IMG/VR virus record: IMGVR_UViG_2851938318_000015
Length of the DNA stretch: 36,695 bases
Strand: one strand, 5' to 3'
From: a virus
Taxonomy: Duplodnaviria; Heunggongvirae; Uroviricota; Caudoviricetes
Of the stretch, positions 1,071 to 7,873 are shown piece after piece. Below the pieces are notes generated by a model, which saw nothing but the letters and a program-made list of their open reading frames with translations, ran no database searches and was not told the DNA's origin. The position numbers and the translations under genes are program-made. Within the stretch, counting starts at the first letter, position 1. Each line of letters opens with the position of its first letter.

Positions 1071-1193
1071 ATGCACGGTAATTCTGAAATGCAAAAAATC
1101 AACCAAACCAGCGCAATGCCTGAAAAAACTGACGTTCACTGGAGTGGTCGGTTTAGCGTTGCACCAATGCTCGATAGGATGTACCGTTTTTGA
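1071..1193 (+). pseudogene. dusA: 5' fragment of tRNA-dihydrouridine synthase A (dusA), interrupted after about 32 codons
   Basis: Short ORF translating MHGNSEMQKINQTSAMPEKTDVHWSGRFSVAPMLD, then RMYRF and a stop. The SVAPMLD stretch matches the conserved DusA N-terminal motif (SVAPMLDWTDRH...); similarity is lost after the LD codons at about 1166. Confidence 0.55.
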
Positions 1194-1318
1194 AAAACAA
1201 ATAGTTATATACTTTGTGGGAGCCTATTGGGAACCCGGCGTTTTCATTTCAAGGTGTAATCCATACGCGGCTTAAGAATGAGATATAATGCGACTTTTAG
1301 TGTTCCGCTTGAGAGGCC

Positions 1319-1855
1319 ATGATGCTTACCCTGGACGAGATAGGTCAATCAGTACGTAACAATATCCAGTTGATTATTGATCATGTCGGCTTACCTCTTG
1401 CTGTTGGTCCGCTCAGTGATGATGATTACAAGATTCTGTGTGGTGGCTATGGTGAGCTTGAATGGGACTATGCGTTAAGTACCTATGGCAACTCCAGAGA
1501 AAAGTATGAGTTCTGCATAAAACTTGTTCAGCAAGGTCGGGTTCAGGGAATACCATCAGGAGCAGCAATTTGTGTTTATGGGGTTGAAGAAAACATCTTT
1601 CGTATCCATATGATCGAAAGGTTTTCTAGAGAAGATGAATCTCACCCATTGAAAGGGCGCATGGTTTTACTCACTCTTATGAGTGCTTTTATATTTTGTA
1701 AAGCTGTTGAATGTAAAGTTGTCCACATTGTAGAGCCAGTACCAGAACTGGTGCAGTATTACGAGTCTTTTGGTTTCCGCATGGAACAGTGCGGTTATGT
1801 GATGTCGGCAGTCATTGATGAGCTGCAGGATATCTTTCTTAAATTTGCTCAGTAG
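1319..1855 (+). CDS. Hypothetical protein, 178 aa; possible GNAT-like acyltransferase fold (weak)
   Basis: Clean ORF just inside the putative junction. The segments HPLKGRMVLLTLMSAF and YYESFGF loosely resemble GNAT motifs A and B; no family assigned with confidence. Confidence 0.35.
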   Translation: MMLTLDEIGQSVRNNIQLIIDHVGLPLAVGPLSDDDYKILCGGYGELEWDYALSTYGNSREKYEFCIKLVQQGRVQGIPSGAAICVYGVEENIFRIHMIERFSREDESHPLKGRMVLLTLMSAFIFCKAVECKVVHIVEPVPELVQYYESFGFRMEQCGYVMSAVIDELQDIFLKFAQ

Positions 1856-2051
1856 GTATAGACGAGAAGGGTCTACAAATTGTAGGATACCCGTCCAGAT
1901 TACCTTAAAGGTACATCTATGGCAGTCGTTTTGTGCTTAAACTACTAAGAAACGATGTCACCAATCGACATGATCGATTGGCATAAGTTAGCGAAACAAG
2001 CTAGCTTTAAAGAAAGGGTTAGAGACGCCTTTACTGTCTCGGGAGTTTTCT

Positions 2052-2225
2052 ATGAAAGATCAAAAAGCAACCAAGCCACAGGTTAAGTTCGACACAATGA
2101 AAGCATTCGCAGGTATGGGTGCTGCTGTTGAAGTTCTGATGAAGGCTGCTCCTAATGCGTTCACTCACGCTACTGTCTCTGGTAAAGAGCAGCAGGGTAA
2201 GCTTCGTCGTCGCAAAGCAGCATGA
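2052..2225 (+). CDS. Small hypothetical protein, 57 aa, basic C-terminus
   Basis: ATG at 2052 preceded by GGGAG about 8 nt upstream; translates MKDQKATKPQVKFDTMKAFAGMGAAVEVLMKAAPNAFTHATVSGKEQQGKLRRRKAA; followed by a strong terminator. Below the 60-aa cutoff of the supplied ORF track. Confidence 0.35.
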   Translation: MKDQKATKPQVKFDTMKAFAGMGAAVEVLMKAAPNAFTHATVSGKEQQGKLRRRKAA

Positions 2226-2243
2226 TCATAGCTGGTGCTTTTT

Positions 2244-2271
2244 GAAAACCCGCCTTCAGGCGGGTTTTTTC
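2244..2271. terminator. Bidirectional intrinsic terminator between convergent genes
   Basis: cccgcc ttcag ggcggg hairpin flanked by an A-run upstream and a T-run downstream; sits between the + strand small ORF and the - strand PrtN-like gene. Confidence 0.6.
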
Positions 2272-2272
2272 T

Positions 2273-2533
2273 TTAGTGATGTTCTTTGTCCTTCTGTTTG
2301 ACTGTTCTGACCTGTTCCCACTCGATACGTCCTTCTTCTCGCCTTTTGTCTATGTATTCCGCAAGATCTTGAATATTGATGCAACGTTTTGCTTTTTGTG
2401 ATGTGCCGATGCGATATGTTGGAACGGGCAACTTACAAGCGTTTGCTTTTGCTTCTGCCGTGGCTGGACTCATACCAAAGTACTTTTGGCTAACTGCTGA
2501 GAGTTCAATGTTTGGGGTATTGAATTCAGCCAT
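2273..2533 (-). CDS. Phage DNA-binding protein, PrtN / excisionase-like family
   Basis: 86-aa ORF (MAEFNTPNIELSAVSQKYFGMSPATAEAKANACKLPVPTYRIGTSQKAKR...) resembling the small PrtN/excisionase-like HTH proteins of lambdoid prophages; its start codon lies 7 bp from the IS end. Confidence 0.5.
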   Translation of the reverse strand: MAEFNTPNIELSAVSQKYFGMSPATAEAKANACKLPVPTYRIGTSQKAKRCINIQDLAEYIDKRREEGRIEWEQVRTVKQKDKEHH

Positions 2534-2539
2534 CAGTAT

Positions 2540-3310
2540 GAACCGCCCCGGGTTTCCTGGAGAGTGTTTTATCTGTGAACTCAGGCTGCCAGATCATCGT
2601 TTCCGATGGAAGCATAATAAGCTTTTTCTGCTTCTGCCGGAGGAGTATGGCCCAGCCTTCCCAGCAATCGTCGATTGTTATACCAGTCCACCCACGTTAG
2701 TGTGGCCAGTTCCACTTCTGCACGGTTTTTCCAGCTCTTACGGTGTATTACCTCCGCTTTGTAAAGACCATTGATGCTCTCAGCCATCGCGTTGTCATAC
2801 GAGTCGCCTGTACTCCCTGTTGATGCCAGTAATCCGGCTTCTTTTAGTCGCTCCGTATAGGCCAGTGACACATACTGAGAGCCTTTATCGCTGTGATGGA
2901 TGGTGCCAGACGGACGACGGGCCCACAACGCCTGCTCCAGCGCATCCAGCACGAATGTCGTTTCCATAGACGATGAGACCCGCCACCCCACGATGTATCC
3001 GGCAAACACATCAATGATAAACGCCACATAGACGAAGCCCTGCCATGTGCTGACGTAAGTAAAATCAGCCACCCACAGCTGGTCAGGTCGTTCTGCCACG
3101 AACTGACGGTTTACGCGGTCGCCTGCGGCAACGGCTTTCCGGCTGATGGTCGTACGGACCTTTTTACCCCGGAGAACACCGGCAAGTCCCATAACCGCCA
3201 TGAGACGTGCCACTGTACATCTGGCCACCCTGATTCCTTCCCGTAACAACTGACGCCAGACTTTACGCACACCGTACACCTGATGATTTTCATCGTATAC
3301 GCGCTGTATC
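2540..3310 (-). mobile_element. Truncated IS3-family insertion sequence (IS629/IS1203-like), 3' portion only
   Basis: Terminal inverted repeat TGAACCGCCCCGGGTTTCCTGGAGAGTGTTTTATCTGTGAACTCA beginning at 2540; orfB-like reading frame on the minus strand; similarity ends near 3310 with no orfA. Element name recalled from memory. Confidence 0.7.
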
Positions 3311-3327
3311 ACACACGCCGGGCGCAA
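2581..3327 (-). pseudogene. IS3-family transposase OrfB (integrase core), 5'-truncated, no orfA upstream
   Basis: 248-aa ORF containing ...QLWVADFTYVSTWQGFVYVAFIIDVFAGYIVGW...HHSDKGSQYVS...YDNAMAES..., typical of IS3-family OrfB (DDE domain). Confidence 0.75.
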
Positions 3328-3389
3328 TCCGTCTGTGCTGGCACTGCGATAACCAGCTGCGCGATCAGTTCACGGAACGGCTGGAATCA

Positions 3390-3977
3390 ATGGCAACGGA
3401 TAACTGTACCCGCTGGGTGTTGTCTGTTGTGCGTCGGGATCTCGGTTTTGATGACAGTCACGTTGTGACAATGCCGGAACTGTGCTGGTGGCTGATTCGT
3501 AATGACCTGGCGGATGCCTTACCGGAAAGTGCAGCCCGTAAGGCACTGAGATTACCGAAGCCTGTTGTGCCGTCTGTCACCCGGGAAAGTGACCTTGTGC
3601 CTTCGGTTCCTGCCACCAGCATCATCCAGGATAAAGCGAAAAAGGTGCTGGCGCTGAAAGTGGATCCGGAGTCGCCGGAGTCTTTTATGTTACGCCCAAA
3701 ACGTCGCCGCTGGGTTAATGAAAAGTACACGCGCTGGGTTAAGACACAGCCGTGTGCATGTTGTGGAAAGCCCGCTGATGATCCCCACCACCTGATAGGC
3801 CACGGTCAGTGTGGAATGGGTACAAAAGCGCATGACCTTTTTGTGTTGCCTTTGTGCAGAAAGCATCACGACGAGCTGCATGCGGATACCGTGGCATTTG
3901 AAGAGAAGTATGGCTCTCAGCTGGAGCTGATATTTCGTTTTATCGATCGTGCGCTGGCAATTGGCGTACTGGCGTAA
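3390..3977 (+). pseudogene. DUF968-family phage protein (YdfU-like), N-terminally truncated at the IS junction
   Basis: Cysteine/histidine-rich C-terminus (CACCGKPADDPHHLIGHG...LCRKHHDELH) as in nin-region DUF968 proteins; the reading frame begins right at the IS fragment boundary. Confidence 0.55.
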
Positions 3978-5245: not shown

Positions 5246-5321
5246 GGCCCTTTAGCTCAGTGGTGAGAGCGAGCGACTCATAATCGCCAGGTCGCTGGTT
5301 CAAATCCAGCAAGGGCCACCA
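5246..5321 (+). tRNA. ileZ: tRNA with CAU anticodon (ileX/ileZ-like tRNA-Ile2, or Met)
   Basis: Manual cloverleaf fold: acceptor ggccctt/aagggcc, D-stem gctc/gagc, anticodon loop ctCATaa, T-loop ttcaaat, 3' CCA. Close to my recollection of E. coli ileX. Confidence 0.8.
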
Positions 5322-5330
5322 TATCACATA

Positions 5331-5407
5331 CCGCCATTAGCTCATCGGGATAGAGCGTCAGCCTTCGAAGCTGGCTGTGCGGGGTTCAAGTCCCCGATGG
5401 CGGTCCA
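5331..5407 (+). tRNA. tRNA-Arg, anticodon read as UCG
   Basis: Cloverleaf: acceptor ccgccat/atggcgg, anticodon stem tcagc/gctgg, loop ctTCGaa, T-loop ttcaagt, CCA. Anticodon read by hand. Confidence 0.7.
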
Positions 5408-5420
5408 TTATCAGCATCAT

Positions 5421-5497
5421 GCGTTGTTAGCTCAGCCGGACAGAGCAATTGCCTTCTAAGCAATCGGTCACTGGTTCGAATCCAGTACAACGCGCCA
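5421..5497 (+). tRNA. tRNA-Arg, anticodon UCU (decodes rare AGA)
   Basis: Cloverleaf: acceptor gcgttgt/acaacgc, anticodon stem attgc/gcaat, loop ctTCTaa, T-loop ttcgaat, CCA. Confidence 0.75.
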
Positions 5498-6022: not shown

Positions 6023-7873
6023 ATGACATTTAAACATTATGATGTTGTCAGGGCGGCGTCGCCGTCAGACCTTGCGGAAAAGCTGACACACAAACTGAAA
6101 GAGGGCTGGCAGCCATACGGCGGACCGGTTGCCATTACGCCGTACACACTGATGCAGGCGGTGGCTATTGAAGGAGAGCCACAGGTCGGCCCTTCATCTG
6201 AGCCGGATTGGTACTACGTCATCGTACTGGCCGGGCAGTCCAATGCCATGGCTTACGGTGAAGGGCTTCCGCTGCCGGATTCATACGATGCTCCGGATCC
6301 GCGCATTAAACAGCTGGCGCGCCGCAGTACAGTTACGCCGGGTGGGGCTGCCTGCAGATATAACGATATTATTCCGGCCGACCACTGCCTGCATGATGTG
6401 CAGGATATGAGTACGCTGAATCATCCGAAGGCAGACCTGAGCAAAGGGCAGTACGGCTGTGTCGGCCAGGGCTTACATATTGCCAAAAAACTGCTTCCGT
6501 ATATCCCGAATAACGCGGGGATCCTGCTGGTACCATGCTGTCGTGGTGGTTCGGCATTCACCCAGGGCGCGGAGGGGACATTCAGTGCGGACGCGGGGGC
6601 CAGCCAGGATTCGGCGCGCTGGGGTGTGGGTAAACCGTTATATCAGGACCTGATTGCGCGCACTAAAGCTGCATTACAGAAGAACCCGAAAAATGTGTTG
6701 CTGGCGGTGTGCTGGATGCAGGGAGAGTTTGACATGAGCGCCGCCACCCACGCACAGCAACCTGCGCTGTTTACAGCCATGCTGGCACAGTTTCGTGCTG
6801 ACCTCTCCGTGTTTAACGCGCAGTGCCATGGTGGCAGTGCTGCAGATGTGCCGTGGATTTGTGGTGACACGACGTATTACTGGAAAAATACATACGCTAC
6901 CCAGTACGACACCGTGTACGGCGGGTATAAAAACAGGGAGAGTGAGGGCGTTTATTTTGTGCCCTTCATGACAGACGGTAACGGCGTCAATACCGCCACT
7001 AACGCGCCGGCAGAAGATCCGGATATTCCGGCATCAGGATATTACGGTGCGGCATCGAGAACGAATGGAAACCAGGTATCATCAAACCGCCCGACACATT
7101 TCAGTTCATGGGCGCGCAGGAGCATTATTCCGGATCGTCTGGCAACCGCTATTCTGAACGCAGCCGGGCGCACCTCAGCCTTCATCAGTGGTAAGGCACC
7201 GGAAATCAAACCCTCGCCCGGCGGCAACACGCCATCGGGTCCGTCTGCAGATACGTCCGTTCGCACAATCTCCCTGCTGCCGGCAGCCGGAGAGGCTGCT
7301 GCGCAGGGCTGGAGCATTAAGGATGGCGGAATTCAGTTGTCAGATGGTGTATTTAAGATCACCAAGCAGAGCAATAAAACCTGGTCCCTGACGCATCCGG
7401 TGGATGACGCAATTACCCTGCTGACACAGGGCGGCAGACTGACCTGTAAGTTCCGCCTGTCAGGCGCGCTGACCAACAATCAGTTCGGGCTGGGGATTTA
7501 TCTGTATACGGATGCTCCCGTTCCTGATGGTGTGGCGATGACGGGTACCGGTAATCCGTTCCTGATGTCGTACTTTACTCAGACCACTGACGGCAGAGTG
7601 AATCTGATGCATCACAGGAAAGCCGGAAACACGAAGCTGGGGGAGTTCGGCGATTACGGTAACGACTGGCAGACGCTGGAGCTGGTGTTCACCGCCGGCA
7701 GTGCCACGGTTACTCCGAAACTGAATGGAGTGGCTGGCCCGGCATTCCAGGTTATAAAAGACAGTCTGACACTGGGACTGAATGCGCTGACGCTGACGGA
7801 TGTTACAAAAAATGCAGCGTATGGCGTTGAGATAGAAAGTCTGGTGCTGGAGATAAATGCACCGGCAGCATAA
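6023..7873 (+). CDS. Prophage sialate O-acetylesterase (NanS-p-like; DUF1737 N-terminus plus SGNH esterase domain)
   Basis: 616-aa ORF starting MTFKHYDVVRAASPSDLAEKL... (DUF1737-like) followed by VIVLAGQSNAMAYGEG (SGNH-type GQSN motif); sits between Q/tRNAs and the lysis cassette, where Stx phages carry stx and nanS-p. Confidence 0.65.
   Translation: MTFKHYDVVRAASPSDLAEKLTHKLKEGWQPYGGPVAITPYTLMQAVAIEGEPQVGPSSEPDWYYVIVLAGQSNAMAYGEGLPLPDSYDAPDPRIKQLARRSTVTPGGAACRYNDIIPADHCLHDVQDMSTLNHPKADLSKGQYGCVGQGLHIAKKLLPYIPNNAGILLVPCCRGGSAFTQGAEGTFSADAGASQDSARWGVGKPLYQDLIARTKAALQKNPKNVLLAVCWMQGEFDMSAATHAQQPALFTAMLAQFRADLSVFNAQCHGGSAADVPWICGDTTYYWKNTYATQYDTVYGGYKNRESEGVYFVPFMTDGNGVNTATNAPAEDPDIPASGYYGAASRTNGNQVSSNRPTHFSSWARRSIIPDRLATAILNAAGRTSAFISGKAPEIKPSPGGNTPSGPSADTSVRTISLLPAAGEAAAQGWSIKDGGIQLSDGVFKITKQSNKTWSLTHPVDDAITLLTQGGRLTCKFRLSGALTNNQFGLGIYLYTDAPVPDGVAMTGTGNPFLMSYFTQTTDGRVNLMHHRKAGNTKLGEFGDYGNDWQTLELVFTAGSATVTPKLNGVAGPAFQVIKDSLTLGLNALTLTDVTKNAAYGVEIESLVLEINAPAA

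Follow-up and report, generated by a model that had tools for sequence, protein, structure and literature searches.

A two-gene cassette at the left edge of a dusA prophage

The stretch of DNA analysed here (the window; 36,695 nucleotides of the IMG/VR virus record IMGVR_UViG_2851938318_000015) covers the left end and the greater part of a lambdoid E. coli prophage, inserted in the 5' end of the host gene dusA. Between the attachment (att) junction and the first backbone gene of the phage lies a cassette in which a -10-like box, a gene for an acidic protein of the GNAT acetyltransferase fold, a structured spacer of ~190 nucleotides (nt), a gene for a small basic protein (referred to as p57) and a terminator follow one another (Table 1). 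The region is best explained as an autonomous two-gene moron. The analyses described below firmly establish a portable unit of two genes, composed of a GNAT-fold protein, its obligate small partner and an RNA element, that alternates with a pair of genes of the Panacea type. Despite their wide occurrence, both genes are called hypothetical in the databases.

An earlier note, made from the sequence alone, had described the region as an uncharacterised two-gene cargo at the prophage edge. Its view of an uncharacterised accessory unit holds, but the two genes are not equivalent, as exchange for the Panacea pair in related phages removes the GNAT gene and the spacer and keeps p57. Both of the open reading frames (ORFs) that it listed are present. 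The larger spans 1319-1855 on the plus strand and encodes 178 amino acids (aa) from its first ATG, but the second ATG at position 1322 (177 aa, beginning 'MLTL...') is the start used by RefSeq and by all homologues, and it is better spaced from the Shine-Dalgarno sequence GAGAGG at 1311-1316; judged from these features, 1322 is most likely the true start. The smaller ORF was said to be separately terminated. A terminator does follow p57, but a terminator scan finds none between the two genes, so the description applies to the end of the pair.

Table 1. Coordinates of the cassette, its flanking features and the effector genes at the right end of the window
Feature	Position	Strand	Remarks
Displaced host dusA 5' stub	1071-1193	+	RefSeq: partial tRNA-dihydrouridine synthase; ends in phage-derived codons
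Conserved phage att arm	1175-1236		Common to GNAT-type and Panacea-type dusA phages (alignment of window, mEp460 and Lys8385Vzw); variable cassette from ~1237
-10-like box, conserved	1284-1289	+	TATAAT here; TACAAT, TAGAAT and TAAAAT in relatives
Divergent acidic GNAT-fold protein	1322-1855	+	177 aa; phrog_4350 (unknown function)
Structured intergenic RNA	1856-2051	+	196 nt; hairpins 1898-1917, 1961-1981, 1985-2007 and 2022-2040
p57, small basic protein	2052-2225	+	57 aa; pI 10.5; phrog_2741 (unknown function); helix motif G..A.E.LMKAAP; basic tail ending -AA-COOH
GC-rich stem-loop intrinsic terminator	2244-2269		Terminator scan; between the convergent p57 and excisionase genes; kept in all cassette copies
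PrtN-family excisionase-like gene, backbone neighbour	2273-2533	-	Pfam PF11112, E 1e-19; phrog_1300 'excisionase'
Partial DUF1076 (NleG-like) gene	within 32775-35945		Right-end effector cluster
espW	33385-34443	-	Right-end effector cluster
Second DUF1076 gene	34522-35172	-	Right-end effector cluster
espM2	35355-35945		Right-end effector cluster

The larger gene encodes a divergent GNAT-fold protein

The suspicion of a GNAT protein, raised earlier from faint motifs, is borne out by structure prediction and structure comparison, though no sequence profile detects the fold. The 177-aa protein has no Pfam or NCBIfam match at E<=1 and no significant match to a curated acetyltransferase model, and ten distant members of its family are likewise without a Pfam match. 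The family is small, as a profile search found 91 members at E<=0.001 among 1.84 billion representative proteins; some UniRef entries for its homologues carry the name N-acetyltransferase. An AlphaFold model calculated from a 30-sequence alignment (pLDDT 89.9, pTM 0.88) has the topology beta1-alpha1-alpha2-beta2-beta3-beta4-alpha3-beta5-alpha4-beta6, which is the GNAT core with one extra helix at each end. When the model was compared with the PDB using Foldseek, the top 50 matches were all GNAT acetyltransferases and 330 matches had E<0.001; N-terminal protein acetyltransferases (NatD/Naa40, Naa20, Ard1 and RimI) are among the closest known systems. A structure search of the viral BFVD set returned generic GNATs only. 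A profile search of PDB sequences found no GNAT and gave weak matches to designed armadillo-repeat proteins, which were rejected as matches to designed repeats.

The invariant residues of the family are His97 and Glu100 on strand beta4, the segment H109-P110-L111-x-G113-x-M115, Tyr148, and the pair G152-F153. In the beta4-alpha3 loop, where the motif A sequence Q/R-x-x-G-x-G/A is expected, the family has an invariant but non-canonical HPLxGxM, and the loop is ~6 residues longer than usual. Tyr148 lies in the sequence YY.SFGF, and together with G152 and F153 it forms the familiar Y..GF of alpha4. The positions of His97, Glu100 and Tyr148 are compatible with catalysis, and the protein is probably an active but atypical acyltransferase. 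Its gene is under purifying selection (pN/pS 0.10-0.29).

p57 is small, basic and unusually codon-adapted

The partner protein has no Pfam match at E<=1 and none in NCBIfam; DARPins, which appeared as weak matches in a profile search of PDB sequences, are designed repeats and were rejected as spurious. Homologues of p57 that are 68-98% identical occur in Escherichia, Salmonella, Enterobacter, Atlantibacter, Cronobacter, Franconibacter and Hafnia. Substitutions among them are mainly synonymous (pN/pS 0.06-0.26), which marks p57 as a genuine coding gene. The protein contains nine lysines and ends in a tail that reads ...RRRKAA-COOH. Its family has a pI of 9.6-10.8, as compared to 4.3-5.5 for the acidic GNAT family, and the two proteins are thus complementary in charge. 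Modelled alone with AlphaFold2, p57 is mostly disordered (pLDDT 61.7), with one 10-residue helix (residues 23-32), a 4-residue turn (15-18) and no strand, which would suit a protein that gains its fold through binding. Every GNAT-linked partner retains the terminal -AA, which is lost in stand-alone relatives from Cronobacter. We take this basic -AA tail to resemble the C-terminal ClpX degrons of the ssrA and MuA types.

The codon adaptation index (CAI) of p57 is 0.56 (0.52-0.60 in relatives), as compared to 0.15-0.37 in all other window genes tested, the major capsid gene included; the weights follow the Sharp and Li table, and the comparison is meant as a relative one. Only 2 of 5000 codon resamplings of the p57 peptide reach so high a value. 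A CAI of this size is unusual among prophage accessory genes. Synonymous divergence of p57 (0.08-0.46) is far below that of the GNAT gene (0.64-0.93), likely as a result of this codon bias. The gene is preceded by the Shine-Dalgarno sequence GGGAG at 2041-2045.

The earlier note had allowed for the larger protein proving to be a relative of something known and for the smaller ORF lacking conservation; the 177-aa protein is homologous to nothing of known function, and the 57-aa ORF shows strong conservation. The comparison with known GNAT toxins that it proposed was also made. A canonical type II toxin-antitoxin (TA) pair of the GNAT/DUF1778 kind (TacAT, AtaRT, KacAT and ItaRT; PMC9177977) would block translation via acetylation of aminoacyl-tRNA, and the GNAT fold itself, with TacT3, AtaT and KacT among the structural matches, speaks for this identification. 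In those systems, however, the partner is a DUF1778 ribbon-helix-helix protein, whereas p57 has neither a match to DUF1778 or to the ribbon-helix-helix proteins nor their fold. The gene order is also reversed, as the small gene lies neither upstream of the enzyme gene nor overlapping it, but downstream across a structured spacer of 160-200 nt, and no Pfam acetyltransferase model matches the GNAT protein. tRNA-acetylating toxins show a basic tRNA-binding surface. The strong acidity of the present family is an indirect argument against binding of a polyanion such as tRNA, and an aminoacyl-tRNA target is unsupported. Membership of the cassette in the TacAT/AtaRT family is therefore largely refuted, and we regard it as scarcely credible.

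The GNAT-fold gene is accompanied by p57

A total of 86 distinct GNAT-carrying loci were compiled, 80 from IMG/VR and 6 from GTDB genomes. In all 86, a p57 gene lies downstream after a gap of 162-197 nt (GNAT identity 66-100%, p57 identity 79-100%). The association extends to distant relatives, in which the gap is 77-248 nt. The GNAT protein of phage Eeyore (42% identical) is followed by an unannotated 53-aa ORF that is 38% identical to p57 and ends in ...QGRRRVREAA; that of Shewanella frigidimarina (43%) is followed by a 57-aa protein ending in ...GRRKAKAA, that of Edwardsiella tarda (46%) by a 59-aa protein ending in ...GKRKNEQKAA, and that of Cronobacter (69%) by one of 57 aa. All distant partners have in common a helix motif, G....L(L/M)(K/Q)A(A/T)P, and a basic tail that ends in -AA. 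Among the homologues examined, about 90 loci in total, no GNAT gene lacks p57, whereas p57 occurs without GNAT in Panacea-type phages and in Cronobacter phages. This one-way dependence matches the pattern expected of TA systems in the broad sense, in which the toxin gene is never alone and orphan antitoxins exist.

The p57 sequence itself records its context. At residue 2, lysine is present in 149 of 149 loci with GNAT and glutamate in 21 of 21 loci with the Panacea pair. When representatives of 90%-identity clusters were counted, frameshifted, truncated or extended alleles made up 10 of the 19 E-type sequences (MED...) as compared to about 4 of the 23 K-type sequences (MK...); in the three disrupted K-type alleles that were looked up, neighbouring genes are fragmented too, in at least one place each, and these may be assembly errors. 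The difference suggests, as a crude indication, that p57 decays after loss of GNAT. One stand-alone relative is found in a Cronobacter phage with Head-tail_con and Terminase_2 genes (locus L181, 2167-2656). It encodes 51 aa without the -AA end, is flanked by its own hairpin terminators and neighbours an unrelated gene of 85 aa; such a copy may represent a decoy or an orphan relative.

The cassette is widespread. A 1.4-kb query across both genes is 100% identical to E. coli RM9131 and is covered to >=80% in 356 of 5426 complete E. coli genomes, with Shiga-toxin-producing strains making up many of the best-matching genomes. Each exact protein is found on at least 1000 assembled contigs, under the source names 'hypothetical protein', 'Phage protein' or (in UniRef) 'N-acetyltransferase'. 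Full-text literature searches found no study of the GNAT-p57 pair.

A putative promoter element and a conserved structured RNA

The conserved -10-like box is positioned 33-36 nt upstream of the GNAT start despite unrelated upstream contexts, as revealed when about 25 distinct upstream regions were compared with the start as anchor. There is no good -35 element near it, and a consensus promoter scan does not call the box. In the Eeyore cassette, the one copy examined for this feature, a terminator is present both before and after the cassette.

The spacer between the two genes folds stably as plus-strand RNA, with a minimum free energy of -58.6 kcal/mol (z -3.7; a stability reached by none of 200 shuffles). 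Its two middle hairpins (1961-1981 and 1985-2007) were compared in 17 distinct sequences, in which 90.8% of the cells are paired, as compared to 14-45% when the partners are slid. Double-sided changes in these hairpins number 24 cells, against 8.6+-2.8 in shuffled data, and none of 500 shuffles reaches 24. The hairpin at 1985-2007 covaries more, with double changes in 4 of its 8 pairs, and the hairpin at 2022-2040, which abuts the p57 Shine-Dalgarno sequence, varies solely by an A-U to G.U change. No Rfam family reached its gathering score in a scan of positions 1000-2700, the best hits being terminator look-alikes far below threshold. The spacer travels with the GNAT gene and is absent from Panacea-type phages; in distant GNAT-p57 pairs the spacers are structured yet unrelated. 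Our guess is that it sets the ratio of the two proteins.

The stem at 1961-1981 is the inverted repeat that the earlier note had offered as a possible operator (CCAATCGA and TCGATTGG separated by 5 nt). The perfect 8-bp repeat is present, though one base to the left of where it had been placed. A DNA operator whose repressor controls a separate p57 promoter would suit a perfect palindrome at a conserved position ~70 bp upstream of p57. However, the variants of this stem are U.G (7 of 17 sequences), G.U (5 of 17) and double changes from C-G to U-A, and they pair only in the plus-strand RNA; on the other strand they are mismatches that break the dyad symmetry of the DNA. The neighbouring hairpin covaries still more, a promoter scan finds no sigma-70-like promoter for p57 within the spacer, and no DNA-binding domain is recognisable in either of the cassette proteins. 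The repeat is thus one stem of a conserved structured RNA, and an operator role appears very improbable.

The small RNA sRNA-17 of E. coli K1 RS218, which is 193 nt long and lies within an mEp460-like prophage (PMC7719688), is unrelated to the spacer, as its published sequence does not occur in the window at <=3 mismatches. A 43-aa ORF at 1955-2086 lies across the spacer hairpins and extends into the beginning of p57. In a few assemblies (P0060 and P0065) the two frames are fused through a 1-nt change within a run of A. The 43-aa ORF is probably no gene, because the region evolves as RNA stems.

The cassette occupies several slots and alternates with a Panacea pair

The cassette is present in at least four distinct genomic slots. 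In the dusA phages (the window and mEp460) it lies between the att site and the excisionase gene. In Eeyore, in Enterobacter mori, in Cronobacter and in several IMG/VR contigs it fills the slot between the Q antiterminator gene and the lysis genes; in one such IMG/VR phage (locus L091, 2541-3344) a divergent DUF3800 gene is located directly upstream of it. Other copies sit at prophage edges beside the host EamA transporter gene or lepA. Finally, a P2-like prophage of Edwardsiella carries the pair in the interval from replication gene A to the portal gene, the cos-proximal gpA-portal hotspot in which P2 bears old and tin and for which many cargoes have been validated as anti-phage systems (PMC9122126). 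No GNAT-containing system is described there, and the location by itself is no proof of defence.

In the sister dusA phages SKA5 and Lys8385Vzw, whose int-attP-...-p57-xis backbone is the same, the segment from the att arm to p57 is filled by a 190-aa Panacea-domain (SocA-like) protein (PF13274, E 2e-19; loci L006 and L007, 2473-3461) with an overlapping 139-aa gene that has a faint membrane-protein-like match only. The same arrangement is found in 19 of 79 new p57 loci from an IMG/VR scan. PADLOC does not recognise this pair, which presumably consists of a PanA-type antitoxin and an uncharacterised toxin. Its proteins are unrelated to those of the cassette, its genes overlap and its antitoxin gene comes first. 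Relative to Lys8385Vzw, the boundaries of the swap are sharp: the left is at ~1237, just past the att arm, and the right at ~2040, just ahead of the p57 Shine-Dalgarno sequence, such that the GNAT gene and the RNA spacer are replaced while p57 and the terminator stay. Presence or absence between homologous phages with sharp edges is the mark of a moron. The suggestion that the edge slot is a place for TA or defence cargo is likewise supported by the Panacea pair at the same place in sister phages and by the distant copy in the P2 hotspot. Classical lambdoid morons, which are built as promoter, gene and terminator (bor and lom of lambda, and stx in the Q-lysis slot), also vary between near-identical phages and have in common with the cassette an own terminator, a -10 box and the use of the Q-lysis slot, but the cassette differs from them in having two genes with a conserved structured RNA between them; its promoter is predicted from sequence.

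The position of the right boundary raises the alternative that the two genes are unrelated neighbours, with p57 belonging to the backbone or forming an independent small moron and GNAT being a separate single-gene moron upstream of it. In addition to the swap edge, which separates the spacer precisely from the Shine-Dalgarno sequence of p57 and leaves p57 in place, the p57 relative that stands alone with its own terminators in the Cronobacter phage agrees with this idea, and the low synonymous divergence of p57 as compared to GNAT may indicate that the two genes differ in history. That divergence is, however, explained by strong codon bias, and the pair stays joined in at least four slots, down to 38-46% identity and across bacterial orders. 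We therefore consider unrelated neighbours rather unlikely.

Possible function of the cassette

The reading that we tentatively favour, plausible though short of probable, is that the cassette encodes a new GNAT effector together with a labile small neutraliser and serves as a moron for defence or of a TA-like kind. In its favour are the one-way dependence of GNAT on p57, the complementary charges, the disorder, high CAI and -AA tail of p57, and the cargo with which the cassette shares its slots. In the mechanism that we envisage, the GNAT protein would be an acetyl-CoA-dependent effector in which His97 and Glu100 on beta4 may serve as the base and Tyr148 as the acid, and its activity would be harmful either to the cell or to an infecting phage. 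p57 would be its cognate neutraliser or regulator, made in excess as a result of high codon adaptation and a good Shine-Dalgarno sequence, and short-lived through its basic -AA tail. A halt in p57 synthesis, as might come with infection, shut-off of the host or loss of the element, would free the GNAT protein, following a TA-like, abortive-infection or exclusion logic. The RNA spacer may set the p57:GNAT ratio via differential mRNA stability or translation, and in the integrated state the upstream region of host dusA might also read into the cassette. If a TA-like or anti-phage module is indeed present, it would represent a new class of GNAT effector with a new kind of small partner, would bring a new regulatory RNA into the known defence repertoire, and would help to explain why this edge stays intact in decaying prophages. 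At ~1 kb, with two genes and one RNA, the cassette is also a test case for how an enzyme and a micro-protein are packaged as a portable unit for lambdoid and P2-like slots.

Several observations weigh against a TA-like or defence function. Neither cassette protein matches PADLOC-DB 2.0 at E<=1. The enzyme-first order and the structured spacer of 160-200 nt are atypical of type II TA pairs, and p57 has no DNA-binding domain, so that the usual TA autoregulation is not evident. The existence of stand-alone p57 relatives, and of intact p57 in many Panacea-type phages, may mean that p57 acts on its own. Several copies of the cassette lie 3' of the Q antiterminator gene, in a slot that holds non-defence conversion genes too. 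The pyrophosphate loop of motif A is non-canonical, and the GNAT protein could thus be a pseudo-enzyme. Lastly, the degron view of the -AA tail is an analogy with ClpX recognition motifs.

The main rival is an enzyme-substrate pair without toxicity. The GNAT protein would then acetylate p57, either at its N-terminus or at one of its nine lysines, or use it as an adaptor or cofactor, and the modified p57 would act on a host target that is abundant (the nucleoid, the ribosome or the envelope) in lysogenic conversion or phage development. The strict co-occurrence of the two genes, the pairing of an acidic enzyme with a lysine-rich basic protein, a codon adaptation that suits an abundant effector, the stand-alone p57 relatives and the copies in the Q-lysis slot used by conversion genes are all in keeping with such a pair. 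It fits less well with the alternative cargo of the dusA slot being a TA pair (Panacea) and with one copy lying inside a defence hotspot; the apparent decay of p57 without GNAT fits a dependent partner of any kind. We regard this rival as somewhat unlikely.

A more elaborate form of the favoured reading is a three-part, phage-borne immunity or addiction module. Here, an acidic GNAT effector, an orphan by sequence, would be restrained by a heavily translated, protease-labile, disordered and basic p57 whose tail plugs the enzyme or is acetylated by it, and the conserved RNA would set their ratio; stand-alone p57-like genes would then be decoy antitoxins that serve in counter-defence. In this full form we consider the proposal unlikely.

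The att junction and decay of the prophage

The host DNA at the left of the window consists of a DUF2713 gene followed by the first ~105 nt of dusA. The att junction of the earlier note is real. The 5' stub of dusA joins phage DNA here, and a three-way alignment of attL (from the window), attR (from the same genome) and the attP that free phage mEp460 carries places the crossover inside ATGCTCGA, at about 1167-1174. The attP of the phage includes its own, diverged copy of the dusA 5' end and upstream region, and upon integration this copy restores dusA at attR (locus L005, 29690-29930). The native upstream region and first ~35 codons of dusA, once displaced, point into the GNAT cassette, which may constitute a promoter-capture arrangement. 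A terminator scan finds no terminator between the dusA upstream region and the cassette, and read-through into the cassette is possible.

On its right side the cassette is bordered by the 'phage DNA-binding gene' of the earlier note, which proves to be the PrtN-family gene that PHROGs lists as an excisionase. Its product is 86 aa long in the window, 93 aa in RefSeq genomes without the insertion sequence (IS) and 103 aa in mEp460; a remnant of an IS1203 (IS3-family) transposase (ORF 2581-3327, minus strand, within the region 2534-3390) abuts the 5' end of the gene. The early region of the prophage (exonuclease, repressor and replication genes) is gone, and what follows is a DUF968 gene truncated at its N-terminal end. 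The integrase gene is frameshifted and dusA is intact, both just past the end of the window, and in the RefSeq record for the identical genome the portal gene is annotated as frameshifted too (window 15604-18025). The two frameshifts are further signs of decay; the prophage is defective and not inducible. Despite this decay, the cassette proteins are 100% identical to those of the free phage mEp460, and a single synonymous base differs in p57.

This state of preservation bears on a further alternative, in which the cassette is a counter-defence module whose GNAT protein acetylates and inactivates a component of host immunity or a small-molecule signal, with p57 as a helper. Functional phages (mEp460 and Eeyore) carry the cassette, often it lies in the late operon 3' of Q, and anti-defence genes are found in accessory slots alongside those for defence. 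However, the conserved -10 box of the cassette and the flanking terminators of the Eeyore copy fit expression in the lysogen, the cassette is kept unchanged in a prophage without an early region and with a frameshifted integrase, and the alternative cargo of the slot is a TA pair. Counter-defence thus appears quite improbable.

The remainder of the window contains further accessory genes. At its right end, a cluster of type III effector genes (32775-35945) has a GC content of 0.36-0.38 and a codon adaptation of 0.15-0.20 (Table 1), and a DinI-like gene is also present at the far right. The effector genes espW and espM2 prompted the label Sakai Sp17, which was dropped unverified; positions 5.04-5.09 Mb of Sakai correspond to Sp18 at sorM, short of dusA. 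A gene for a PerC-family transcriptional regulator is found at 9955-10269, just 3' of the lysis genes. The window's own Q-to-lysis slot (5246-5497 and 6023-7873), which the GNAT-p57 cassette fills in other phages, contains a DNA methylase remnant, three tRNA genes (Ile, Arg and Arg) and a carbohydrate esterase of the SASA/NanS-p type.

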